The position numbers and the translations under genes were made by a program. This document shows positions 3,628-64,000 of a stretch of DNA of 64,000 bases, in pieces. The stretch lies in NCBI GenBank assembly GCA_025057415.1, contig JANWXI010000002.1, positions 3,497 through 67,496 of the forward strand. The letters run 5' to 3'. The notes under the pieces are model-generated. The model was not told the DNA's origin. It saw only the letters and a list, made by a program, of their open reading frames with translations, and did not search any database. This stretch comes from Chitinophagales bacterium (GTDB lineage Bacteria > Bacteroidota > Bacteroidia > Chitinophagales > LD1). Each line of letters begins with the position of its first letter. The stretch's first letter is position 1.

Positions 3628-4065
3628 TTATACCTGGTTGTTAGTAAACGCGTACCGTAAAAACGCCCATGGTCTCCGGTGTTTGAGATAGTCGGGGCGG
3701 TGTTCGTTGCTATACGCTTCGCGCTCAAATATCACAGCGCGATAGGCGCGGTGATGGCTGCGATAAAGAATGAGGTTGAAGAGGTAATGCAACCCGTACA
3801 AGATATAAAAGGGGAGGATGAGCATTTCTAGCTGCTGTACCAGGTGTATGCGCTCGTGGAGCATGAGGGTGTGGTCATGCACCATATCCCGGCTTTTCAG
3901 CAGCACAAACGGGAAAATCGCCATACCGGAGTACCGCAACACAGGCACTATTATCACCGGCGGGTTTTTCAAATATGCCAGTAGCAGAAGTGTATTCATT
4001 GCGATTAGGCAGAAGAAGGGAAGTTTTTCTATGTAAAAACGGGGAGGTAGTGTAGTAACAAACAA
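3628..4065 (-). CDS. Small membrane protein with HExxH motif (putative metalloprotease-like, function unknown)
   Basis: 145-aa ORF with hydrophobic N-terminal segments. Contains HERIH (HExxH) followed by FEREAY. The true start may be the internal MNTLLLL. Confidence 0.4.
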   Translation of the reverse strand: MFVTTLPPRFYIEKLPFFCLIAMNTLLLLAYLKNPPVIIVPVLRYSGMAIFPFVLLKSRDMVHDHTLMLHERIHLVQQLEMLILPFYILYGLHYLFNLILYRSHHRAYRAVIFEREAYSNEHRPDYLKHRRPWAFLRYAFTNNQV

Positions 4066-4091
4066 CCTCCCCGAAAAAGTTTTTGATAATG

Positions 4092-4511
4092 TTAGATGGC
4101 AGTAAGGTACTGGGTGTAGCAGTAGCCCTCTTCACCATCGTCAGTTTTGATGTACCACCACTGGTCGTTTTCTTTGCGCACGAGGGTCACAATTTCATTG
4201 CGGGCAGCTTTGCCGATGATGTCGTAATTGGTACCGGGGCCTTTGCGGATATTCAGGTTGGTGCTTACGGTGGTAACGCGCAGTTTGGCGCCCTCGGGCA
4301 CTCCGGCGGTACTGTTGATGTTCAACACCAGGTCGCCCGATACGTAATCGGGGTCTATTTTATCGTACAAGTCCCACAGTTGTTGTTTTACGGCAGCGCT
4401 GGCTTCCCCGTCAATGTACAAAACACCGTCCTGCTCGCGCACCTGCAAATTGCGTACCTGCCCGTTTTGGGCGGCATCAATCAGGGGTTTGTATTTAGCA
4501 GATAAGCTCAT
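4092..4511 (-). CDS. SH3b-domain protein
   Basis: The C-terminal half LNIRKGPGTNYDIIGKAARNEIVTLVRKENDQWWYIKTDDGEEGYCYTQYL is a typical bacterial SH3_3 pattern. The N-terminal half resembles the N-terminus of BON/LysM-type stress proteins. Confidence 0.6.
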   Translation of the reverse strand: MSLSAKYKPLIDAAQNGQVRNLQVREQDGVLYIDGEASAAVKQQLWDLYDKIDPDYVSGDLVLNINSTAGVPEGAKLRVTTVSTNLNIRKGPGTNYDIIGKAARNEIVTLVRKENDQWWYIKTDDGEEGYCYTQYLTAI

Positions 4512-4541
4512 AGTAAGTTATTTTTATATTATGAAAATATT

Positions 4542-5030
4542 TTATTTGTTTTTAAGCCCTGACGGGTCAATTTTTTTGGGCTTCAGGGCGCTAAGCGCCA
4601 TCATCAGTTTTTGCCGGTCGGCTTTGGCAATGGTGCCTGTGAGGGTAATTACCCCGTTTTCAACCACGGCAGTCACATCCGGATAGGAGGCAATGGCATC
4701 CTTTACGGCTTGTTTCAGCGGGTCGTCAGGGGTGATTTGTACCGGAGCAGGAGGCGCTACGGTAATGTTGTTGACGACTTCTTTAACGCCGGCAATAGCT
4801 TTTACCAGGTCGGCTGTGCGCACTTTACATGCTTCGTCTTTACATTGGCCGGTGAGGGTGGCTATACCTTTTTCAACGGTAACACCCAACCCGGTGAGGT
4901 CAGGATGGGAAGCAAGCGCTTTTTCAATGGCAGATTTGATGTCGGCATCTTTGGGTTTACTATTGCAGGAAAACAGCATTAGCGATCCACAAAGCGATGC
5001 TAAAGCGGCAAGGAGAAAAAGTTTTTTCAT
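4542..5030 (-). CDS. BON-domain lipoprotein
   Basis: The internal Met gives a lipoprotein signal MKKLFLLAALASLCGSLMLFSC. Two BON-like repeats follow (...VTVEKGIATLTGQCKDE...AGVKEVVNNITV; ...VVENGVITLTGTIAK...). The upstream 26 codons of the listed ORF are probably not translated. Confidence 0.75.
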   Translation of the reverse strand: MKKLFLLAALASLCGSLMLFSCNSKPKDADIKSAIEKALASHPDLTGLGVTVEKGIATLTGQCKDEACKVRTADLVKAIAGVKEVVNNITVAPPAPVQITPDDPLKQAVKDAIASYPDVTAVVENGVITLTGTIAKADRQKLMMALSALKPKKIDPSGLKNK

Positions 5031-5262
5031 GTGGTTAAATTTTAGTTGGTGATGATTTAAGCAGATAAAGTAATGCAATTTACTTGCCAGATTATGTTTA
5101 AGCGGCAATAAAAGAGTATTCAGGTACTAAAACTTCAAACAAAAACAACCTAAAATTAACCCGCAGGTTTTCCGGTTAAGAGAGGAAGTGCCTATATCAA
5201 GCTCCCCTTTCTACATAACTGCATCAAACTGTTGTATATAAAATACTTTTAATATAATTACG

Positions 5263-5281
5263 TGCGCGGCAGCACCGCGCA
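5263..5281 (-). terminator. Possible stem-loop terminator downstream of the T9SS cargo gene
   Basis: TGCGCGG-CAGCA-CCGCGCA inverted repeat about 20 nt after the stop codon at 5299. It is followed on the minus strand by an A/T-rich stretch rather than a clean U-run. Confidence 0.3.
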
Positions 5282-5298
5282 TGCATGTAAAAGCATTG

Positions 5299-8200
5299 TT
5301 ATTTTATAAATCGGGCGGCCGCTAAGCCGGCTTTAATGGTGTAAACACCTGATTGGAGAGCAGATACATCAAGGATATGCACAAAGGACGGTTCAGCGGT
5401 AAACTCAATTACTTTTCTACCTGCGATGTCCCATAATTCAATTTTATCGGTTTTTTCGGTTGTTTCAACTGTTAACCACCCTTGTGCCGGATTGGGGTAA
5501 ACGCGCATCGCTTCAGCCGTTATTTGTAAAGTTCCAAGACAGATATCTACAAAAAATGCATCCGTAGCCGAGGCGGTACAGTTGTTGGCATCGGTATATG
5601 TGTAAGTGATGGGGATGTTCCCTGTTAACCCTGCCGGGTTGAAAGTTCCTCCGCTCACGCCTGTACCACTGTAAGTGCCTCCCGCGGGGTCGCCTCCTGC
5701 AAGATTGATGGGGGAAGCGTTCTGGCATATTGTATCAACAGGTAAAGAGAGCGATACATTTGGCAGGGGGTTCACGGTAACGGTTATGGCATTAGAAGCC
5801 ACCGTGCATCCGGAGGAAGGGTCAGTAGAAGTTACATTGTAGTTGCCGGAGGTGCTAACAGTTATAGAGGTGGTATTGGCGCCGTTGCTCCAGGCGTAGT
5901 TGTCACCACCGGAAGCGGTTAATTGTACACTGCCTCCTGCACAAAAGGTGGTGCTGCCGTTGGCGCTTACATTCACGGAAGGTGCATACACCGATAGGTT
6001 ATAGCTGCCAGAGGCAGTGCATCCGTTGTTATCAGTAATGGTTACGGTATAGTTGCCCGCCGTGGTGGCTGTGATACTGGATGTAATATGTGAAGTATTC
6101 CACAGATATGCGGCTGCGGGAGACGCCTGCAAGGTTACGCTGCCTCCGCCCACACACAGTTTATCGGGGCCAACCGGTGAGATATTGGCAGCAGGCGGAG
6201 GAAACACAGTTACCTGAATAGTATTTGAATTTTTTGTACAGGCGCCATCACTTACCGTAGCAAAGTAGTTGCCGGTGGTATTGACCGTAATGGACTGGCC
6301 GGTTGCTCCGGTGTTCCATGTGTAGCTGAGACCGGGAACTCCACTCAATTGCACACTTTGCCCTTGACAAAAGCTCGTAGGACCATTTGCGGAAATAAGG
6401 TTACTGTCAATAAACGAGAGGTTAACGAAGATGGAAGAATCAGCGCTGCAACCGCCAGCCCCGGTGACGGTTACGGAATAAGTACCGGTAGCGCTCACAG
6501 CTACAGTTTGCCCGGTACTGCCGGTGCTCCACAAGTACGTATAACCGGGGGCTGCAGTCAGCACGGCCGTAATGTTGCACAAATCGTAGTTAGAGAAGCT
6601 CAGTGAAGAGTCGGGGGCGGGATGAACAGTAACGGTAATCGTGTTGGAGGATGCCGGGCAACCGTTTACGGTTACGCTTACCGTATAAGATCCCGATGTG
6701 CTAACGGTAATGTTTTGTGTGGAAGCGTTGTTACTCCACTGGTAGGAGTCGGCTATGGGAGCATTTAATGTAACTGTATTACCGCTGCAGAAAGTGGTAG
6801 GGCCGGAGGGTGTGATGGTGACTCCGCCCAGCGGGCCAATTTGTATGGCACGCGAAAAGTTACTTGTATCAGCGGGCGCAGTGGATATAACGCGCAGGCG
6901 ATAACCGCTTCCGCTGGGCACACTAAAGGGTATGATGACACTGATTGAGTCATTGCCGGGCAGTGCAGAGTTTTTTACACCAATGTTAATGGCATTATTA
7001 AAGTTGCCTGCGGAGTCAGATAACTGGACAATCATGTTGTTGAATGCGGCAAAGGCGATAGGTTTGTGGATGTAAATTTTGGTATTAGCGCCCTGGCAAA
7101 GCGAAAGCGGATAGTCGGTCAAATCGAGGTTGGAGGTACGCAAGCTGGCGAAATAATTACGTAAATAACCCTGAACACCCAGAAAACTTCCGGCAAGGAA
7201 GATACGCTGGTGCATGCGGCTGTACAGGTAACTGTTCATATACCCGATTACGCCATCACCGATGTAGAAAGCTCCACTAATGTTGCCATTGAAATCAGTA
7301 AATGCCATTTGGTTATGCGGTATGCCATTTACAGAGGTGAACTCTCCGATAATCAACACCCCGATTGGTAGTATGACAATGTTTCCGACATAACTATTGT
7401 TTACGGCAGCTGTATAAGTGTTATCTAAAGCACCATTTGGCATCAGGCGTGCAATGCGTTGTTTGCTGGTGCCGTTGAAAGACGTGAAAGATCCGCCGGT
7501 ATATATATAACCGTTGTCTGCCACCTCTATGGAATAGATAATACCATTGGCTGCTGTACCCGGAGTGAAAGTATTGTCAAGTGTTCCGTTATTGTTGATG
7601 CGTGCAATGCGGTTTATGCCTGTGGTGCCGTTGTAACTCGTAAAGGCACCACCGATGAGCACTTTTAGGTTGCTTACCGGTTTGATGGTCCAAACTGTAC
7701 CGTTAAATCCCGTACCGAAATTGAAGGTGTTGTCAATGCTGCCGTTGGGGTTGAGGCGTACGATGCGGTTACAGTTATTGCCGTTGTATTGTGTAAACGC
7801 GCCACCTACATAAATTTTACCCAAGCTATCAATGGCAATTTTGTTGATGGCGCCATTGAACCCGGTACCTACGTTGAAAGTGGTGTCAAGCGAGCCATCG
7901 GCATTCAAGCGGGCCAGGCGATTGCGCGCAACGCCATGAATAGTAGTGAAGTTACCGCCAATCACAATTTTATCATCTGTCTGTATCGCTATGGCAGTAA
8001 TCTGATCGTTGGCGCCCGAGCCGGCAGGGAAAGAGAGGTCTAAGGTTCCATCGTGGTTGTAGCGTATGATACGGGCTTTAGTGATATCGTGGTATTTGAA
8101 GAATGCCCCGGCTACAATCAGACGGCCATCGCTTTGCATATCCACCACGTTGGTAAAGGCGCTGAAATGCGACTCGCGGTTAAAGGTCTGGTCCACTTTG

Positions 8201-9360
8201 CCATCAGGTAACAGACGCACAAATCGAATGCGTGCGAACGAGTCGGCTATTGTGAAGGTGCCGCCTACATAGATACGGTCGTCATGTGCCATAAACACGG
8301 AGTTGCAGCTTAAGTTGAGCCCACCGCCCGGTTGAAAACTCAAGTCGCGCGTACCATCGTTATTAATACGCACGATTCGGTTTATGGCGCTACCGGCATA
8401 AGACGTAAAGTTGCCTGTTGCCAATACTTTTCCATCAGGTTGAATGCAGATTTCGTTTACATTATTGTTGAAACCCGTTCCGACATTGAAAGTGGCGTCC
8501 AGCGAACCATCGGAATTAAGCCGTGCGATGCGATTGCTGGGCGAGCCATCGTAATTGTTGAAAAAACCGCCAATCACTACTTTGTTCCCTACGGTTACAT
8601 AAGCCGAAGTAATGATGTTGTCTGCGCCACCATTGAGGGTCTTGAATGTAGTGTCACGGGTACCGTTAGGGTGCAAACGCAGGATTCGCCCTACCGTATC
8701 GCCATTGAATATGGTAAAGTGTCCTGCCACAATGATTCTGCCATCCGGAAGTTCGTCAACATCGTACACGTTGTTATTAGCAGCACTGCCGATCAAAAAT
8801 GTAGTATCTCGCGTGCCGTCTGGGTTTAATCGTACTAAACCATTTACAAGGTCACCATTATAGTGAGTGAACCCTCCCGCCACCAGTATTTTCCCGGTGC
8901 TGAGCACTTTAATGTCATACACAGAGAAAGAGAAACCGCTGCCGGTATTGAATGAATTATCCAGGGAACCATCGGGATTAAGGCGGGCAATTCTGTTTTT
9001 CAGCACACCGTTGAACATGACAAAGTCACCGCCAATGATTAGTTTACCATCGGGCTGGCGCGCCACTACGTTTACGTGCTCATCGGCTCCAGTGCCGGTA
9101 TTGAACGCAGGGTCTATGGTGCCATCGGGAAAAACCCTGGCAATGCCGGCAATTTTTTGATTGTTTGCAAAGAAAAACCGCCCTATCACAATTACGCTGC
9201 TATCGGGCAGCACCAAACCACCGGTACACTTGAAATCATACCCGCGGCTTTTGTAAAAAGAAGTGTCTAAGGTGCCGATTTGCGCGCTAAGCATAATAGG
9301 CAAGCAGTTGTAAGCAAATAGAAGCGCAGCTAAAAAGGTGCGTAGAAAATTCATATTCAT
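5299..9360 (-). CDS. Large secreted T9SS cargo: delta-60-type repeats + Cys-containing Ig-like modules + T9SS C-terminal sorting domain
   Basis: Signal peptide starts at the internal Met (MNMNFLRTFLAALLFAYNCLPIMLSAQ). About 12-13 repeats of the LNPDGSLDxxFNxGxGFN type follow. Next come about 5-6 modules of the type GPTxFCxGxSVxLxA...YxWSxG...ITVxxxGxYxVTVTDxxGCxxxS. The C-terminus RVYPNPAQGWLTVE...LWDIAGRKV...LQSGVYTIK is typical of T9SS sorting domains. Confidence 0.85.
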   Translation of the reverse strand: MNMNFLRTFLAALLFAYNCLPIMLSAQIGTLDTSFYKSRGYDFKCTGGLVLPDSSVIVIGRFFFANNQKIAGIARVFPDGTIDPAFNTGTGADEHVNVVARQPDGKLIIGGDFVMFNGVLKNRIARLNPDGSLDNSFNTGSGFSFSVYDIKVLSTGKILVAGGFTHYNGDLVNGLVRLNPDGTRDTTFLIGSAANNNVYDVDELPDGRIIVAGHFTIFNGDTVGRILRLHPNGTRDTTFKTLNGGADNIITSAYVTVGNKVVIGGFFNNYDGSPSNRIARLNSDGSLDATFNVGTGFNNNVNEICIQPDGKVLATGNFTSYAGSAINRIVRINNDGTRDLSFQPGGGLNLSCNSVFMAHDDRIYVGGTFTIADSFARIRFVRLLPDGKVDQTFNRESHFSAFTNVVDMQSDGRLIVAGAFFKYHDITKARIIRYNHDGTLDLSFPAGSGANDQITAIAIQTDDKIVIGGNFTTIHGVARNRLARLNADGSLDTTFNVGTGFNGAINKIAIDSLGKIYVGGAFTQYNGNNCNRIVRLNPNGSIDNTFNFGTGFNGTVWTIKPVSNLKVLIGGAFTSYNGTTGINRIARINNNGTLDNTFTPGTAANGIIYSIEVADNGYIYTGGSFTSFNGTSKQRIARLMPNGALDNTYTAAVNNSYVGNIVILPIGVLIIGEFTSVNGIPHNQMAFTDFNGNISGAFYIGDGVIGYMNSYLYSRMHQRIFLAGSFLGVQGYLRNYFASLRTSNLDLTDYPLSLCQGANTKIYIHKPIAFAAFNNMIVQLSDSAGNFNNAINIGVKNSALPGNDSISVIIPFSVPSGSGYRLRVISTAPADTSNFSRAIQIGPLGGVTITPSGPTTFCSGNTVTLNAPIADSYQWSNNASTQNITVSTSGSYTVSVTVNGCPASSNTITVTVHPAPDSSLSFSNYDLCNITAVLTAAPGYTYLWSTGSTGQTVAVSATGTYSVTVTGAGGCSADSSIFVNLSFIDSNLISANGPTSFCQGQSVQLSGVPGLSYTWNTGATGQSITVNTTGNYFATVSDGACTKNSNTIQVTVFPPPAANISPVGPDKLCVGGGSVTLQASPAAAYLWNTSHITSSITATTAGNYTVTITDNNGCTASGSYNLSVYAPSVNVSANGSTTFCAGGSVQLTASGGDNYAWSNGANTTSITVSTSGNYNVTSTDPSSGCTVASNAITVTVNPLPNVSLSLPVDTICQNASPINLAGGDPAGGTYSGTGVSGGTFNPAGLTGNIPITYTYTDANNCTASATDAFFVDICLGTLQITAEAMRVYPNPAQGWLTVETTEKTDKIELWDIAGRKVIEFTAEPSFVHILDVSALQSGVYTIKAGLAAARFIK

Positions 9361-9409
9361 ACCGCAAAATTTGGTGTTAATATACTCAGGAAAAATTAAA
9401 TGTTCTAAA

Positions 9410-10540
9410 TTACGGAAAAAATATTTGCCCGTTTGTAGCCACTTCTTCGCCTGCAACTACCTTGGTTTGATGGCGAATGCTTTCGTTGTGAATTTGCTGA
9501 AACAATTTAAGGATGAACTCTTCGGTAAGTCCCCCGGTTTTGCCTTTCTGCAGGGCGCGGGCTACTATTTGTGCCCAGCGTTCTTTTTGGTGTATAGCTA
9601 ACTGGTGTTCTTTTTTCACCTTGCCAATTTGCTCAGAGATACCCATGCGCTCAGCGAGCAGTTCAATGATATAATCGTCAATACGGTCCACGCGGGCGCG
9701 CAGGTCGTGCAGCGCTTGTAAGCTGCTGTTTTCGGGCAGGGTGGGTTTGCGCACTATCAGCCCTTGCAGAATTTCAGCGAGTCGCTGCGGGGTAATTTGC
9801 TGAGCGGCATCGCTCCATGCTTTGTCGGGATGGGGATGTGTTTCTATCATCAGTCCGTCAAAACCCATGTCTAATCCCTGCTGCGCCAGTGTGGCAATCA
9901 GGTGGCGCTTACCGCCCATGTGGCTGGGGTCAACGAGTATGGGTATTTCGGGGAAACGCCTGCGCAATTCAATGGGAATCTCCCACATGGGTGGGTTGCG
10001 GTAAACAGATTTTTCATAGGATGAAAACCCGCGGTGAATGACGCCCAGCTTTCGGATACCTGCTCCGTGGAGGCGCTCCAATGCGCCAATCCAAAGTTCC
10101 AGGTCGGGATTGATGGGGTTTTTGACCAGTACCGGTACATCTACACCGCGGAGGGCTTCGGCTATTTCCTGCACGGCAAATGGTGAAACGGTGGTGCGTG
10201 CCCCTATCCATAGCACGTCAATCCCGTGACGCAAGGCGGCTTCTACGTGCTCGGGGTTTGCCACCTCTACAGTAACGGGCATGCCTACTTCGTTACCGGC
10301 ATTTTTCAACCAGGGCAGGCCTATTTCGCCCACTCCTTCAAAGGTGTTGGGGCGTGTGCGCGGTTTCCAGATGCCGGCGCGCAGCAGGTGCACCCTGCCC
10401 GCAGCGTGCTTAGCAATGAGGTGAGCCGAGAGCATTACCTGCTCTTCGCCTTCAGCGCTGCAGGGTCCGGCAATTACCACCGGTGCTTCGGCAGCAGGCA
10501 GCCATGTTTGTATGGGGGAGATTTGGAATTTACTTGCCAT
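9410..10540 (-). CDS. Bifunctional 3-deoxy-7-phosphoheptulonate (DAHP) synthase / chorismate mutase type II
   Basis: N-terminal KDO8P/DAHP-synthase-like barrel (VIAGPCSAEGEEQ, LRAGIWKPRTRP, ILVDPSHMGGKR). C-terminal chorismate-mutase helices (LRARVDRIDDYIIELLAERMGISEQIGKVKKE). This fusion is common in Bacteroidota. Confidence 0.9.
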   Translation of the reverse strand: MASKFQISPIQTWLPAAEAPVVIAGPCSAEGEEQVMLSAHLIAKHAAGRVHLLRAGIWKPRTRPNTFEGVGEIGLPWLKNAGNEVGMPVTVEVANPEHVEAALRHGIDVLWIGARTTVSPFAVQEIAEALRGVDVPVLVKNPINPDLELWIGALERLHGAGIRKLGVIHRGFSSYEKSVYRNPPMWEIPIELRRRFPEIPILVDPSHMGGKRHLIATLAQQGLDMGFDGLMIETHPHPDKAWSDAAQQITPQRLAEILQGLIVRKPTLPENSSLQALHDLRARVDRIDDYIIELLAERMGISEQIGKVKKEHQLAIHQKERWAQIVARALQKGKTGGLTEEFILKLFQQIHNESIRHQTKVVAGEEVATNGQIFFP

Positions 10541-10582: not shown

Positions 10583-11773
10583 ATGAAACGTTTAATGCCG
10601 GCGTGGTGCCTTGTTGCAATATTAGCGCAAACAGTTGGTGCACAAAGTAGTTTATCTATTAACACTTTTAACCATGCGCCGGATGCTTTCAGGTATCTTT
10701 TACTTCCCAATACAGCTATTGCACACAACGATACAGTACACGAAATCATAACAGATTTGGCAGAGCCGATGCTGGCGGACTCTGTGATAGAGAAAAGAAA
10801 GCAGCATCACCGTGTGTTTTTAATCGGCTGGCTGTTACATGCGTTTGGCGGGTATAACTGGCGGGCGCTTAGTATGCACAAACAGAAATTTGTAGGTACT
10901 GTGGTACGGCACACGCGCAGCCGTGAAGAGGAATATACGGAGTACGACATTAACTTTGATATTAACTTTCATCTCAAAAAGTATCTGTGGAAGATTTTTG
11001 GCGCTTATGACCGCCAGCGCGAGTTACGGAGGCAAGATTACCGCAGGTCGCACCACCGCAATTATGACAGTATCCCTTTTGTGCGCGACACGAATTGCAT
11101 CGATATTCGCAATTACCGGTTGCATTGTGAATTAACGCCCCCGCGCGCCTACCGCCATCTGCTCAATTATGTATTTTATCCTACACTGCCCGAAGCGGGA
11201 GATTTGGCGAAGCATCCCAGTTTTGGAACTAACCGCCCGGTGATGGGGTTTTACGGTACGTATTGTTTGGATTGTAACCACAGTTGTCATCCGGAGCTGC
11301 ACCCATACGAATGGGTTTGGTGGCTGAAGACACTGCCGGGCGACAGCACGCGCAGCAAAACATGGTTTTTCGGCTTGATGCACGAAAGCAGTAACCGGAT
11401 GAAGAACTGGAGCAGAGAGCCACTTTGCGGCAGTATTAAAATTCCGTTTGCTAAAGATTGCAGTAAAGCGGGCGACACTGTGTTGCGCATTTATGTAGAG
11501 CATTTGGTGTTTGGCACATTTGCCGGTATGGGGGAGGTATTGCTAGCAGACAACGCAGTGAAGTTATCGGGGGCTGAGAACAGCGTAATACAGCTTGAGG
11601 GTTTGCCCGGCAAATTTATGATGGTTGTTTTTTCGCACCCGATAAAGTCGGATGATTACCGAATTGGTTTCAGTGAAATGAATTACGACAGAGGACTTGA
11701 TGTTTTAACGGGGTATTTTCATATTGCGACAAATATTAATGCGTTATATACGGCGCGCGTTACATTCGATTAG
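10583..11773 (+). CDS. Hypothetical secreted protein
   Basis: The internal Met gives a signal peptide MKRLMPAWCLVAILAQTVGAQS. The listed ORF's first 119 codons overlap the aro gene antisense and are rejected. No family recognised. Confidence 0.5.
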   Translation: MKRLMPAWCLVAILAQTVGAQSSLSINTFNHAPDAFRYLLLPNTAIAHNDTVHEIITDLAEPMLADSVIEKRKQHHRVFLIGWLLHAFGGYNWRALSMHKQKFVGTVVRHTRSREEEYTEYDINFDINFHLKKYLWKIFGAYDRQRELRRQDYRRSHHRNYDSIPFVRDTNCIDIRNYRLHCELTPPRAYRHLLNYVFYPTLPEAGDLAKHPSFGTNRPVMGFYGTYCLDCNHSCHPELHPYEWVWWLKTLPGDSTRSKTWFFGLMHESSNRMKNWSREPLCGSIKIPFAKDCSKAGDTVLRIYVEHLVFGTFAGMGEVLLADNAVKLSGAENSVIQLEGLPGKFMMVVFSHPIKSDDYRIGFSEMNYDRGLDVLTGYFHIATNINALYTARVTFD

Positions 11774-11869
11774 TGATGGTAGTACATTTAAAACGTGTGC
11801 GCCTGAGCAGCGTAGTTTGTTGAACTTAACGTTGCGCAGCTGCGTAGTTGTGCTTTGAGCGTGCGCCAG

Positions 11870-12021
11870 CCGGGTGAGGGATGCGTAGGGCGCGAGCGCA
11901 GCGAAGCGGCCGCGCCCGTACCATTGATAAAAAAAATTTACGGGCGCGGCGGGAGCGGCAGCGTACCCCGCAGCAAGCCCGACCCCGCTGCCTTGCATGG
12001 CTTGGCAGCGGGGGCACCCCC
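11870..12021 (+). repeat. GC-rich double-hairpin intergenic repeat, copy 1
   Basis: CCGGGTGAGGGATGCG...GGCAGCGGGGGCACCCC aligns by eye along its length with 41315-41440 (same orientation) and 62715-62868 (inverted). It contains a 12-bp central stem (GCCGCGCCCGTA / TACGGGCGCGGC) and a 10-bp terminal stem (CCCCGCTGCC / GGCAGCGGGG). Confidence 0.85.
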
Positions 12022-12083
12022 TAAAAGCAAAAAAATGCATGTACCAGATGTGTATGATTGTATTAAACGTGTATTTTTGGAAT

Positions 12084-13472
12084 ATGAGCATGCTCAGTGA
12101 TTTTTTACGAACGCTCAAGCCCGATGAACTGGCGATAGTACGCCAAATGCCTGCATCGGAGCGCGAGAAACAGGTGCTGCTGAACACGCTGGTGCATTTG
12201 CAGGATAAGGAGTTTGATGATGAGCTGGTGCAATATGAATTGAAACTGAGTAAGTCACATTTTGATAAGATAAATTCTGTGTTGCTTGATAAGTGTTACC
12301 ATGTGCTGACCGATGGCAGCAACCGGGAGGTTCTTTACTTGCTTTGGCAGAAGGGACTGAAGACACTGCTGCTGCACGAGGCGAAGATACGGGAGCGCAA
12401 GTTGCTCAAGGGCAACAAGAAGAAGTTAGCTGAGTTGTACAAGATAATGTTTGACATTTCGGTGCGACTGCCGGTGCTGAACGGAAAGATTGCCTTGGCG
12501 GAAGAGTACGGAAGAAAATACCTTGCCACTTTAGGTAAGCCCGCTGAGGAACAACGCAGCGAAATATGGCTGAATTATTTGTTCGGTACGGTGTTTTACT
12601 ACGCAGCGAACGGGAAAATGGCGGAGTATGAAGCGTGGACGAAGGCAGAGTTAAAGAAGTGGGCGCGCAAATTGGAGGGGAAGGATTACCCGGTTTGTCA
12701 ATTCTACTATCATTTGTGCTGGTCGGCATATTATGAACATTACTCCAGCGACTGGGACAATCTGATGAAGAGTTTGCATGCTGCTTTAGAGGCACTCGGC
12801 CGGTGCGAAGAGCGGGTGGGAAGCAATTATCGCATTTATGTGGAAACCACCATAGCTAAGGCGTATGCTCACAACAGTAATTACCGCGAGGCATACGAGC
12901 GGTACAGCGCCTGTTTTGATAAGTTTGCAAAGCAGTTGGTTCGCAACCGGTATCACCCGTTGATGTACGCTGTGATAGCGATACTGCATCAGCAATATGA
13001 TGTGGCAGAGAGCATTATGGAGAAATACATGAAGTTTTACTTAGAAAACACACCGCACGATACGTTTAATTTTGACATAGAGCGGATATATGCGCTTTTA
13101 TATATGTATAAAAAAGATTATACGAAAGCAGCCTATTACCTGCAGCGTGGCCAGCAATGGGATAAAACAAAATTTACCTTTTTGGGTGACATTCTGCAGC
13201 GCATTACACAAAACATTTACTTTATCCTGCAGCGCGATTTTGAAATGGCGCTTACTCTGTTGCGCAGCAATAAACGGTTTTTGCAATCGAAACAACCCGA
13301 TGAGATGACCCGCGAGTACGGTGTGATGTTTGATTTGATAAACGATGTTATTCGTCTGCAAACAGGTAAAGAGCCCTCTAAAAATTTTTTGCAAAACCTG
13401 GAGCAGAGCCGCCGGGGTATCATGCGGTTGTATGCCGGACTGCTCGATGAGTTTATACCGCAGCGTTCATAG
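12084..13472 (+). CDS. Hypothetical protein (helical, TPR-like; function unknown)
   Basis: Long ORF. The start is moved to ATG 12084 (MSMLSDFLRTL...) because the listed start lies inside the GC-rich repeat. Helix-rich and Tyr/Leu-rich sequence with no catalytic motif recognised. Confidence 0.5.
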   Translation: MSMLSDFLRTLKPDELAIVRQMPASEREKQVLLNTLVHLQDKEFDDELVQYELKLSKSHFDKINSVLLDKCYHVLTDGSNREVLYLLWQKGLKTLLLHEAKIRERKLLKGNKKKLAELYKIMFDISVRLPVLNGKIALAEEYGRKYLATLGKPAEEQRSEIWLNYLFGTVFYYAANGKMAEYEAWTKAELKKWARKLEGKDYPVCQFYYHLCWSAYYEHYSSDWDNLMKSLHAALEALGRCEERVGSNYRIYVETTIAKAYAHNSNYREAYERYSACFDKFAKQLVRNRYHPLMYAVIAILHQQYDVAESIMEKYMKFYLENTPHDTFNFDIERIYALLYMYKKDYTKAAYYLQRGQQWDKTKFTFLGDILQRITQNIYFILQRDFEMALTLLRSNKRFLQSKQPDEMTREYGVMFDLINDVIRLQTGKEPSKNFLQNLEQSRRGIMRLYAGLLDEFIPQRS

Positions 13473-41101: not shown

Positions 41102-41314
41102 GCCGACAGAATAACAAACATACAGGTTCTGTATGAATTTTTCGTACCCAAAAAATGTGTTGCGGGTTTGTATTGTGAAAGAAAAGGCGGATGTGGCTGC
41201 AGCGTGGGGAGCCATTACCGCATACATAACGCTACAGGCGAATACAAGGGTGTGAAGTAGCAAATGCTGGTGGGATTTATGTTGCATAGGTGAAGTAAAG
41301 TAGTAGCGTATAAG

Positions 41315-41440
41315 CCGGGTGAGGGATGCGAGCGGAAAGCCCGCAGCCGCGCCCGCGCTTATAGCGCGGGCGCGGCGAGGACTTGAAGCGGGTCAGCCCG
41401 ACCCCGCCGCCTTGCAGCGCTTGGCGGCGGGGGCACCCCC
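41315..41440 (+). repeat. GC-rich double-hairpin intergenic repeat, copy 2
   Basis: Same element as 11870-12021, shorter. Central perfect 13-bp stem GCCGCGCCCGCGC-TTATA-GCGCGGGCGCGGC. Terminal stem CCCCGCCGCC / GGCGGCGGGG. Lies in the divergent intergenic region between the two halves of the cluster. Confidence 0.85.
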
Positions 41441-41557
41441 AAAAAAATATTAACCAGATTTACTTTGTGTTGCGTACAAAGGTTCAAGGGATAATTAGGA
41501 TGGGGAGTTTCTGATAGCGATAATTGATGAATAAGGATTATAGCGTATCTTTACCGC

Positions 41558-61003: not shown

Positions 61004-62630
61004 AAAATACATCTTAGGCATCAACGGAGGCGTGCGCCCCGGTTATCAGGACGTATCGGCTGTGCTCTTGCGCGGCGGCAGCATCGTAGCCGCTGTGGAG
61101 GAAGAGCGCCTCAACCGCATCAAGCACGCCCCGGGCCAATTGCCCATACTCGCTGTAAAAGAAGTGTTACGCATTGCGGGCATACATATCACCGATGTTT
61201 CTACACTCGCATTTCACGGCAGCACCTGGCAGCCGGCTATTGAAGACATATTAAAAAATCATTTCACAAGTTATTTCGGCCATTGTCCCCCCATCCGGCG
61301 CTTTCATCATCACGATTGCCACGCGGCATCGGCTTACTACGCCTCGGGTTTTGACGAAGCCCTCATCCTCACCGTTGACGGCTCCGGTGACGGCATCAGT
61401 ACCCAGGTAGCTGTTGGCAGGCACGGTACGCTGCAAGTGCTCGAACGCTACGCCCGCCCGCAGAGTTTGGGTTTGTTTTATTCTATGATAACACAGATCT
61501 GCGGCTTCACACGTGATATGGACGAGTACAAACTCATGGGCTTAGCCGCCTTTGGTAAACCAACTCCCGAACGGCTGGAGGCGCTGCTGCAAATCACCGA
61601 TAGCGGCTATCGCCTCAACGAAGCATACCTCGTACCTATCCTTCCCGGCCAACCCGGTCCCTCGCGCTACGAAATGCTCTACACTGAAAAATTGCTCCAA
61701 CTCACAGGCACAAAACGCAGAACCGATACACACATCACAGATGAATACAAAAACCTGGCCGCCTCGGCACAATTCTTACTGGAGCAGGCGCTGTGTGCCA
61801 TTGTAAAAAAATATGTGCGCGAAACCGGCATCCGAAAAATCTGTATGGCAGGAGGCGTAGCGCTCAATTGCCTCGCCAACATGAAAATTGAACAACTACA
61901 CGAAGTAGATGAACTGTTCATTCAGCCCGCCGCAAGCGATGCGGGCATATCGCTCGGGGCAGCGTACCTTGCCGCGGCAGAGCAGGGCATCACACAGTTT
62001 GAAAAACAAACCCACGTGTTTTACGGCAGCGAATACAGCGATGATGAAATTGCCCGTGTGCTGCAAAGCTGCGCCTGCAAAGCCCAACGCGAACCCGACA
62101 TCACCGATGCTGCTGCCCGGGCGCTCGCGCAAAAAAAAGTCATCGGATGGTTCCAGGGGCGCATGGAGTTTGGTCCCCGCGCCCTCGGCAACCGCAGCAT
62201 CCTGGCAGACCCGGCAACACCCGACATACAATCTATCGTCAACCAAAAAATCAAATTCCGCGAGAGCTTCCGCCCCTTTGGCGCAAGCGTCCTGCAGGAC
62301 GACTTCCACCGCTACTTCATCGCCAGATGCACCGAAGCGCCATACATGACAAAAGTTTTTCATGTAAAAGAACCATACCGCGCGCTCCTGCGCGGCGTGA
62401 CCCATGCCGATGGCACCTGCCGCGTCCAAACCGTCACCGACAGCCAAAATCCCCTCTACGCCCGCCTGCTGCGCGCCTTCAAATCCCTCACCGGCCACAG
62501 CGTACTCCTCAACACCAGCTACAACCTCAGCCACGAACCCATCGTCTGCACCCCGCGCCACGCCATCGCATCCTTCTGCGCCAGCGGCTTAGACGAACTC
62601 TTCCTTGGCACATACCGCCTCACAAAATAA
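60993..62630 (+). CDS. NodU/CmcH-family carbamoyltransferase
   Basis: ILGINGG...DVSAVLL...VAAVEEERLNRIKH N-terminus, HHHDCHAASAYY, and C-terminal MEFGPRALGNRSILADP and NTSYNL blocks. Start is either GTG 60993 or TTG 60969. Confidence 0.85.
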   Translation: MANEKYILGINGGVRPGYQDVSAVLLRGGSIVAAVEEERLNRIKHAPGQLPILAVKEVLRIAGIHITDVSTLAFHGSTWQPAIEDILKNHFTSYFGHCPPIRRFHHHDCHAASAYYASGFDEALILTVDGSGDGISTQVAVGRHGTLQVLERYARPQSLGLFYSMITQICGFTRDMDEYKLMGLAAFGKPTPERLEALLQITDSGYRLNEAYLVPILPGQPGPSRYEMLYTEKLLQLTGTKRRTDTHITDEYKNLAASAQFLLEQALCAIVKKYVRETGIRKICMAGGVALNCLANMKIEQLHEVDELFIQPAASDAGISLGAAYLAAAEQGITQFEKQTHVFYGSEYSDDEIARVLQSCACKAQREPDITDAAARALAQKKVIGWFQGRMEFGPRALGNRSILADPATPDIQSIVNQKIKFRESFRPFGASVLQDDFHRYFIARCTEAPYMTKVFHVKEPYRALLRGVTHADGTCRVQTVTDSQNPLYARLLRAFKSLTGHSVLLNTSYNLSHEPIVCTPRHAIASFCASGLDELFLGTYRLTK

Positions 62631-62714
62631 CCCCGCCCTAACCCCATAGCGCGCCCGCAGCGCACCATCATCCCTCGCTAAGCTCTCAGCTCTTCCTCTT
62701 TTCATTTTTATTAT

Positions 62715-62868
62715 GGGGTGCCCCCGCTGCCAAGCGATGCAAGGCAGCGGGGTCGGGCTGGCTACGGGGTGCGCTGTCGCTCCCGCCCCGCCCGCAATTG
62801 GTTTGTTTTTTCAGCGGTACGGGCGGGGCCGCTTCGCTGCGCTCGCGCCCTGCGCATCCCTCACCCGG
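62715..62868 (-). repeat. GC-rich double-hairpin intergenic repeat, copy 3 (inverted)
   Basis: Its reverse complement aligns with 11870-12021 over its full length. Central stem GCCCCGCCCG / CGGGCGGGGC and terminal stem CCCCGCTGCC / GGCAGCGGGG. It sits at the junction between the GC-rich end of the cluster and the AT-rich RT segment. Confidence 0.85.
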
Positions 62869-63153: not shown

Positions 63154-64000
63154 ATGACAAGAATTTTAGACCTTAATCATACAGACGTAAGACAATTTTT
63201 TCTTAAAGCAGAAAGCTATTTCAACTTTGATCTTCCAAAATATTTTGTGTTTGAAAATTTATTGCAAGCTGTTTCCAATTATATCAGTGGACAAGAACTT
63301 TCAACTTTTTATTCTACATACACTAACAGTCAAGGACAAACCAAAAGACATTCTCCAGCAACCTTTGAAGATGTTAACTATAAATTCTTAAATAATAAAG
63401 ATGGAAAATTTGCTTGGCGACTATTACAACTAATACACCCAGCACTGTATATTTCACTAGTAAACAAAATCACTGAACAAGCTAATTGGAATTTAATTGT
63501 GAATCGGTTTGCTCAGTTTCAAGATAATCCAAAAATAAGATGTTACAGCATTCCATTACGTTCGGATGATCAACAGTCTGATAAAGCGACCTCAATTAGT
63601 CAATGGTGGCATGAAATTGAACAACAGTCATTGGAACTAGCATTGAAATACGAATATGTTTTACATACAGACATTTCAGACTGTTATGGCTCAATTTACA
63701 CACACTCAATACCTTGGGCCATTCATACAAAATCCGTAGCAAAAGCACATAGAAGAGACCAAAATCTCATTGGAAACATTATTGATAAACATTTGCAAGA
63801 AATGGCTTTTGGTCAAACAAATGGAATACCACAGGGAAGTGTTTTAATGGATTTTATAGCAGAAATTGTTCTTGGATATGCAGACTTAAAGTTATCACGC
63901 AGAATAGAGCAACACAACTTGCAGGACTATGAAATAATCAGATATAGAGATGATTATAGAATTTTTTCAAACAATCCCCAAACGGTCGAACATATTGCCA
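63154..64000 (+). CDS. Reverse transcriptase, Abi/UG-type (defence-associated-like), 3' end outside window
   Basis: Not in the supplied ORF track because there is no stop codon in the window. From ATG 63154 I translated 282 codons without a stop. N-terminal KAESYFNFDLPKYF and KDGKFAWRLLQLIHP. Motif A-like HTDISDCYGSIYTHSI, motif B-like NGIPQGSVLMDFIAEIVL and motif C IIRYRDDYRIF (YxDD). Confidence 0.85.
   Translation, partial: MTRILDLNHTDVRQFFLKAESYFNFDLPKYFVFENLLQAVSNYISGQELSTFYSTYTNSQGQTKRHSPATFEDVNYKFLNNKDGKFAWRLLQLIHPALYISLVNKITEQANWNLIVNRFAQFQDNPKIRCYSIPLRSDDQQSDKATSISQWWHEIEQQSLELALKYEYVLHTDISDCYGSIYTHSIPWAIHTKSVAKAHRRDQNLIGNIIDKHLQEMAFGQTNGIPQGSVLMDFIAEIVLGYADLKLSRRIEQHNLQDYEIIRYRDDYRIFSNNPQTVEHIA

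Follow-up and report, generated by a model that had tools for sequence, protein, structure and literature searches.

Background

BOX elements of Streptococcus pneumoniae and ERIC/IRU elements of enterobacteria are non-coding repeats of ~100-200 nt which are modular or imperfectly palindromic, intergenic, strongly folded and present in ~100 or more copies; we know of no transposase for either. Documented high-copy palindromic repeats in Bacteroidota are few. REPs are defined by a unit of 20-40 nt and a GTAG or CGTC tag, and a survey of them reports only the CGTC type for Bacteroidota (PMC3733652). Single-strand Y1 elements carry a hairpin near each end and have neither inverted repeats nor duplications, and one subclass of the enzyme, TnpA(Y1) subclass 2.6, is dominated by Bacteroidetes and is reported to lie between 'atypical secondary structures' of which the genome carries more copies (PMC6006769).

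The window analyzed here is the whole 64-kb stretch of DNA presented above, and a GC-rich, foldable repeat occurs in it three times. With a probability of roughly 60%, the three copies are members of a high-copy, non-autonomous, modular palindromic intergenic repeat which is propagated as DNA, of the REP/REPIN/BIME, BOX or ERIC kind. The form of this repeat was not found described. The DNA-repeat reading is favored because of the high copy number, the intergenic positions in any orientation, the sharp ends, the ordinary neighboring genes, the patchy distribution, and the shuffling and inversion of modules between copies.

Three copies in the window

An earlier note on this DNA had claimed three copies of the repeat, and all three were found where it had placed them and on the same strands: copy 1 at 11870-12021 (+ strand, 152 nt), copy 2 at 41315-41440 (+ strand, 126 nt) and copy 3, inverted, at 62715-62868 (- strand, 154 nt). 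Exact blocks of 16 and 21 nt are common to the three copies and were never reproduced by shuffles. The 16-mer CCGGGTGAGGGATGCG has exactly three sites in the window, at 11870 (+), 41315 (+) and 62853-62868 (-); at up to 3 mismatches it has 4 matches versus 0.26 expected, a count which no shuffle reached. GCCCGACCCCGCYGCCTTGCA occurs 3 times in the window versus 0.00 expected. Copies 1 and 3 belong to one subfamily, A, and are 89% identical over 158 nt. Copy 2 belongs to subfamily B, which has a different interior; its likeness to the other two is confined to the first 16 nt at the 5' end, the foot of the central stem and roughly the last 50 nt. Apart from these three copies the window has no non-coding GC-rich island, and neither another copy nor a remnant of the element was found in its 64 kb. 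A separate series of six diverged 52-nt units, spaced at ~153-156 nt or multiples of that, lies at 7557-9144 within a 1385-aa minus-strand ORF (5299-9456), which is a gene for a repeat-domain protein and unrelated to the element.

Copy 1 opens with the conserved 5' block CCGGGTGAGGGATGCG (11870-11885, + strand), whose GGGTG can pair with the CACCC of the 3' end. Its central hairpin follows at 11909-11950 (+), with arms at 11909-11918 and 11941-11950 around an A/T-rich loop of 22 nt, then the conserved junction block GGGAGCGnnAGCGnACCCCGnAGCnAGCCCGA (11951-11982, +) and the terminal hairpin at 11983-12013 (+), with arms at 11983-11992 and 12004-12013. The copy closes with GCACCCCC (12014-12021), beyond which lies an A-rich flank. 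In copy 2 the central hairpin (41346-41376, +) has 13-14 bp and a loop of ~5 nt, and the terminal hairpin lies at 41402-41432 (+). In copy 3 the central hairpin occupies 62785-62829 (-; arms 62829-62820 and 62794-62785, loop 25 nt) and the terminal hairpin 62722-62752 (-; arms 62752-62743 and 62731-62722).

The differences between copies keep both stems paired, as the earlier note had described. Copies 1 and 3 have the terminal stem CCCCGCTGCC/GGCAGCGGGG, where copy 2 has CCCCGCCGCC/GGCGGCGGGG, a T-A to C-G double change. For the central stem, copies 1 and 2 agree in GCCGCGCCCG/CGGGCGCGGC, and copy 3 has GCCCCGCCCG/CGGGCGGGGC, a G-C to C-G double change in which 62826 pairs with 62788. The same note had the loops varying freely, which holds for the central loop (22, ~5 and 25 nt in copies 1, 2 and 3) but not for the terminal loop, a near-constant TTGCAnnGCTT in the window copies. 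Open frames do run across the element, as also proposed, and in a public MAG a 64-aa gene has been annotated across a related copy (L058, 3216-3407). One such spurious peptide from the window was searched in a protein collection and gave no match and no further copies. Arg/Gly/Ala-rich ORFs across the element should not be called as genes in annotation.

Anatomy of the family and its relatives

The unit is 106-180 nt long and consists of a conserved 5' block, an imperfect long central hairpin, a junction block and a terminal hairpin. The 5' block CCGGGTGAGGGATGCG and the 3' block [G/A]CACCCC(C) are common to all copies, as is the junction block, with the consensus RAGCGnnAGCGnA(C)CCCGnAGC(n)AGCCCGR, which is shortened in subfamily B. 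The central hairpin has a loop of 3-25 nt, and its stem varies from 4-6 bp in some copies to 17 bp in others; the terminal hairpin is 27-49 nt long and stands 7-8 nt from the 3' end. Subfamily A comprises copies 1 and 3 and most copies from the MAG SKYGB_h_bin9 (SKYGB below), and subfamily B comprises copy 2 and the locus L030; the two have their ends alone in common. Loci L045 and L049 are a short form of 106 nt.

Relatives were sought by scanning one genome per species with the 5' block, and those found are a lower bound. Most of the matches listed were chance matches in GC-rich genomes. True relatives were found at no fewer than six loci of SKYGB, a Chitinophagales MAG with the accession GCA_033578915.1 (L004, L009, L019, L024, L034 and L036), and in the MAG SKYG53, accession GCA_025057395.1, where L038 is the same locus as L004. 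Among the matches listed there was also one relative in the Bacteroidota MAG J06616_5 (L030) and one in a MAG labelled Spirochaetales (L045). A metagenome scan gave one true relative only, L049, on a JGI contig that shares 97.6% identity with L045 over 2 kb. With true relatives in other MAGs, the family is not confined to one species. Searches of viral contigs and of phage and plasmid collections gave no match to the element. A search of the window against Rfam 15 at gathering thresholds, which the earlier note had suggested, also gave no match, so the element belongs to no known Rfam family; copy 1 and L019 searched at E up to 10 gave chance-level matches only.

The conserved blocks are >90% identical between the window and SKYGB. 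In one protein search no NCBI-sourced homologue exceeds ~52% identity, and this ceiling suggests that the SKYGB proteome is distant from that of the window. The closest homologues of a window protein (64-62% identity) and of the RNase R beside L019 (65%) come from Logan contigs, and those contigs, ~60 kb in total, hold no element copy and no GC-rich island. Such a patchy distribution is compatible with horizontal transfer among hot-spring Bacteroidota or with the long persistence of a repeat constrained by a copying enzyme.

Folding and covariation

Copies 1, 2 and 3 fold better than their shuffles (z = -3.4, -5.1 and -3.1, with 0 of 200 shuffles as good), and hairpin stability across copies ranges from -52 to -115 kcal/mol. 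To compare the terminal hairpin between ten copies, its register was set from the conserved flanks, with nine bases taken downstream of AGCCCGR and nine upstream of [G/A]CACCCC, because MAFFT and RNAalifold run on whole elements misalign the variable hairpins. Standard pairs fill 95.1% of cells versus 61.5% in shuffles (0 of 500 as high), and sliding the partner by 1-3 columns as a control gives 40-54% pairing. Changes on both sides were seen in 8 of the 9 pairs, and the position is occupied by seven quite different stem sequences.

The central stem also carries double changes: in L009, L024 and L034 a C-G pair is changed to A-U, and L009 and L019 differ by U-A against C-G. Partner positions vary in the source metagenome as well: for copy 3, 10 contigs carry 62826 G>C and 8 carry 62788 C>G, and for copy 1, 8 carry 11912 G>C and 4 carry 11947 C>G, all of them per-position counts and not linkage within a contig. 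The outer stem GGGTG/CACCC and a competing pairing, CCGGGU/AGCCCGG, are both invariant and hence beyond covariation. An inner 'rod' pairing of two conserved blocks is not supported: it has one consistent position (G.U, G-C, A-U) and is broken by L034 and others.

Since partner positions vary together across copies and in the metagenome, the folded form is maintained. To this extent the claim of the earlier note that covariation implies selection on structure stands; it is not, taken alone, proof of selection on an RNA, because the arms of a palindrome can switch templates and so produce double changes and loop inversions. The 55-nt central hairpin at L009:240-294, a 17-bp stem with a 23-nt loop, is 98% identical to L034:663-717 and inverted with respect to the other parts of the element; its stem is unchanged, and its loop appears as the reverse complement, flipped between the arms. 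In the SKYGB copies the loops of the central and terminal hairpins have a related core in opposite orientation, and terminal hairpins are swapped wholesale among otherwise similar copies. Inversion of a loop between the arms of an inverted repeat is a DNA event, so the loop sequence is not read in a strand-specific way.

One rival explanation is that the copies form a structured RNA family, either small RNA genes or a portable UTR module, with the conserved blocks as the core of a three-way junction and the hairpins under selection as RNA. We consider this unlikely. It would account for the very strong covariation of the terminal hairpin and the double changes in the central stem. It would also account for the unpaired blocks AGCGnnAGCG and GnA/GnA, which are conserved across genomes; unpaired blocks kept beside covarying stems, GNNA-type loops and tandem G.A internal loops make a pattern which is equally expected of a functional RNA. 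G.U pairs in several terminal hairpins (L034, L049, L030 and copy 1) make the sense strand more stable by 3-6 kcal/mol, which favors the RNA explanation too. Whole elements, on the other hand, fold about equally well in sense and antisense (for example -85.4 versus -83.5 and -114.5 versus -114.0 kcal/mol), and the inversion of a hairpin module between copies and the Rfam result also speak against an RNA. Strong covariation which comes without good evidence of an RNA gene is a caution for pipelines that discover RNA motifs.

Abundance in the source metagenome

The window was matched to Logan contigs of a hot-spring metagenome run (X1) at a threshold of at least 80% likeness. Copies 1, 3 and 2 are matched by 319, 296 and 111 contig pieces, respectively, and some 300 matching pieces speak against an RNA gene family. 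Summed depth, which is not the same as copy number, is 4000-7800 on the conserved blocks of subfamily A versus 8-11 on unique flanks, and ~600-2400 on copy 2. The junction block is the part of the family best represented (summed depth ~7800), and the interior specific to subfamily B is ~10x rarer.

Contigs of run X1 end inside the element. The longer of these have depths of 6.5-12.5, like the window's own contigs, so many of the copies are probably from this organism or from others of equal abundance. At three copies per 64 kb, a whole genome would carry well over a hundred. In two MAGs of the SKYG series the interior of the element (L004:6300-6465 and L038:1235-1300) consists of long poly-G and poly-C runs and N, and the two assemblies differ downstream; this filling is an assembly artefact at the repeat. 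The element explains breaks and errors of hot-spring genome assemblies at such sites. In 5-7 metagenome contigs an extra module, GCAAAACAAGGGCTGCCGGAGCGTTTGCTT, itself an imperfect hairpin, stands directly 5' of the element (flanks at window 11872 and 62866). This module is absent from the window and from all fetched loci.

Genomic context

All eleven copies which were seen with flanks are intergenic, and they stand in every orientation to their neighbors. Copy 1, L004 and L024 lie sense-downstream of a gene, just after stop codons; the 5' edge of copy 1 is 97 nt past the stop of a gene ending at 11773, between two + strand genes. Copy 3 and L019 are antisense to both neighbors, which for copy 3 are the + strand genes of a carbamoyltransferase (ending at 62630) and a reverse transcriptase (starting at 63154). 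Copy 2, L034, L036, L045 and L049 are just upstream of start codons, some of them in divergent gaps, L030 lies between convergent genes, and L009 was seen on its downstream side only. Orientation is therefore unrelated to the neighboring genes, which argues against the RNA explanation, in particular at the copies antisense to both.

Copy 2 lies in a divergent gap, 117 nt upstream of a B12-radical-SAM gene (41558). Only 27 nt (41288-41314) separate it from the start codon of a minus-strand GDSL-like gene (41287), so the promoter of this gene lies inside or beyond copy 2, and the leader of the gene may hold the whole of copy 2 in antisense.

The neighbors are ordinary genes: DAHP synthase, a DUF58/VWA protein, the GDSL-like protein, the B12-radical-SAM enzyme, the carbamoyltransferase, an ABC ATPase, a T9SS-sorted protein, photolyase, RNase R, an AMP-binding enzyme, amylase, GreA, SmpB and a sigma factor. 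No transposase was found among the neighbor genes of the copies, and no ORF with an HUH-plus-Y motif in the window and related loci. An ORF with motifs like those of a Y1 transposase (NHVH, then YILNNP 60 aa on) was seen at ~6.7-6.9 kb of L028, in a Lachnospiraceae MAG. It was rejected as a family-associated transposase, L028 being a chance-match locus unrelated to the element.

Signals of transcription were also sought. The Bacteroidota -7 motif TAnnTTTG was found neither inside any copy nor within 100 nt upstream of one, on either strand. A terminator scan of the element found none, and no copy has a U-tract after its last hairpin. An intrinsic terminator was accordingly rejected as a candidate: the terminal hairpin is followed by GCACCCC and then by the A-rich flank, and on the antisense strand the T run precedes the hairpin. 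The lack of a promoter motif and of a terminator at the copies speaks against small RNA genes. No RNA run that contains the sequence was found for the sample.

Another explanation, which we judge quite unlikely, is that the repeat is no longer mobile and is kept by its host, for protection of mRNA ends, insulation or termination of transcription, binding of a nucleoid or gyrase-type protein, or stabilization of DNA in a thermophile. REPs have been reported to act in such ways (PMC6006769, PMC3733652). The copies just past stop codons, the very stable hairpins and the hot-spring habitat would all suit such a role, as would the near identity of the conserved blocks in genomes whose proteins are far apart. 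Other copies, however, sit in promoter gaps or antisense to their neighbors, and the U-tract of a terminator is lacking. The closest relatives do without the family over ~60 kb, so there is no general requirement for it.

Gene order relative to relatives with ~64% protein identity ends exactly at the element in two places (window 11774-12088 and L019:476-879). In the window, DAHP synthase and a 396-aa gene are followed by a different gene than in the relatives, and at L019 the same is true after MiaA and RNase R. The break beside the element may be a coincidence at that distance. Copy 1 and L019 offer no clean comparison with an empty site, because the relatives are only ~64% identical and the order breaks there. 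Exact-protein look-ups for strain variants without the element returned the same MAG contigs only.

Insertion boundaries

The boundaries of 10 copies show no direct repeat consistent enough to mark a target duplication, the best being chance repeats of 3-4 nt. Complementarity between the ends is the 5 bp of GGGTG/CACCC only, and no conserved target tetranucleotide precedes the 5' end.

The 3' side differs in composition. The first 20 nt past the 3' end contain 12-13 A in all three window copies (12022-12041, 41441-41460 and, on the minus strand, 62695-62714), and the 3' flanks of the metagenome consensus open with A runs of 7-11. This richness in A is on the sense strand of the element only and is a feature of this genome, not of the other MAGs. 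It could be a target preference or a part of the element. A flank rich in A on one strand is not predicted by the DNA-repeat model, and it favors the RNA explanation to that degree.

It would also suit the idea that the repeat is a retroposed, SINE-like element, whose structured RNA would be reverse-transcribed into A/T-rich sites and leave an A-rich 3' tail. This we regard as very improbable. The reverse-transcriptase gene which starts 286 nt from copy 3 fits with it, as do the A runs themselves, but there are no target duplications, none of the copies seen is truncated at its 5' end, other MAGs lack the A-rich tails, and the inverted internal module points to events at the level of DNA.

Least plausible of all is that the copies are integron-like or cassette recombination sites (attC-like) or mark the boundaries of a 44-kb gene cluster bracketed by copies 1 and 3: these two copies are inverted and bracket ~50 kb, and a single-gene RT unit lies next to copy 3, but the ends are CCGGGTG and CACCCC and not the core sites RYYYAAC / GTTRRRY, other copies flank unrelated housekeeping genes, and at ~1 copy per 20 kb, with hundreds of metagenome pieces, such bracketing is expected by chance.

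The flanks may also bear on strand choice. Their GC skew is positive relative to the sense strand of the element in 8 of 11 copies, which is not significant, and it is +0.13 to +0.15 for all three window copies, the inverted copy 3 included. Copy 3 lies where the skew of the window changes sign, the cumulative curve having its turning point near 58-60 kb, so that it keeps the relation to skew which copies 1 and 2 have. This relation hints at strand-biased insertion.

How a DNA repeat could keep its hairpins

If the copies are a mobile DNA repeat, as favored here, the folded single strand would be recognized by an enzyme acting in trans. Only copies which still fold would then be copied, and the hairpins would be kept in this way. 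Template switching that corrects palindromes would add to the apparent compensation, and any influence on transcripts, for instance on RNA stability or read-through, would be a side effect.

The most likely class of mobilizing enzyme would be an HUH/Y1 single-strand transposase of the RAYT/TnpA(REP) type, a candidate proposed because the element has a hairpin near each end, no inverted repeats and no duplications. An abundant and well-defined family would give the enzymes of subclass 2.6 a concrete candidate substrate.

A bolder version of this account is, in our estimate, quite improbable. It holds that the repeat is a new class of mobile element folded as a single strand, neither REP nor MITE, with a core like a three-way junction, hairpins that can be exchanged or inverted, and a strand-specific A-rich 3' flank. 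The class would be common to distant hot-spring Bacteroidota by transfer or persistence, and copied by a Bacteroidetes-specific Y1 enzyme with atypical substrates or by an RNA-mediated route.

Comparison with known repeat classes

The earlier note had offered a REP/MITE-like element or a small structured RNA or DNA site. A REP/MITE-like element suits the copy number, the orientation, the lack of promoter and terminator and the equal folding of both strands better than a small RNA does, but in the strict sense of either term the repeat is neither a REP nor a MITE.

BoxC and triplex repeats were rejected, since the element has no CCCTCACCC partner for its GGGTGAGGG. Integron attC sites differ at their boundaries, where every copy of the element has CCGGGTG / CACCCC(C) and no GTT core. 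MITEs such as Correia/NEMIS (PMC3184786) are like the element in being small, non-autonomous, intergenic, high-copy and foldable. They are expected to have inverted repeats of ~10 bp or more and a target-site duplication, whereas the element has 5 bp of GGGTG/CACCC and, in the 10 copies compared, no duplication.

The ends of IS200/IS605 elements and their miniature derivatives resemble the element in the hairpin near each end, in the lack of inverted repeats and duplications, and possibly in a strand bias relative to GC skew (8 of 11 copies). They are also expected to have a conserved target tetra- or pentanucleotide beside one end, and here the likeness is ambiguous: the 5' flank of the element is not conserved and has no such tetranucleotide, and its 3' flank in this genome is rich in A, hence in T on the opposite strand, but has no fixed word. 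No parent IS with tnpA or tnpB was seen, and Rfam models gave no credible match.

BOX and ERIC/IRU elements have no sequence relationship to the element, which consists of GC-rich hairpins in a Bacteroidota genome of lower GC (~38-50%) and in which, as a further difference, whole hairpins are swapped or inverted between copies. In their general form they are alike: the element too is modular, imperfectly palindromic, intergenic and strongly folded.

Compared with REPs, the element is longer and more complex, with 106-180 nt, two different hairpins and conserved unpaired blocks in place of a single hairpin of 20-40 nt. The tag of a REP has an uncertain counterpart: ~10 nt from the foot of the terminal hairpin subfamily A has the candidate G[T/C/G]AG, which reads GCAG, GTAG, GTAAG or GGAG, and which is absent in subfamily B, and no copy has CGTC. 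In most other respects the element is like REPs, REPINs and BIMEs. At 3 copies per 64 kb and ~300 contig pieces it is high-copy and extragenic and occurs in both orientations, as they do, and like them it is GC-rich and palindromic, has complementary stem variants, forms composite mosaics, and is without terminal inverted repeats or target duplications.
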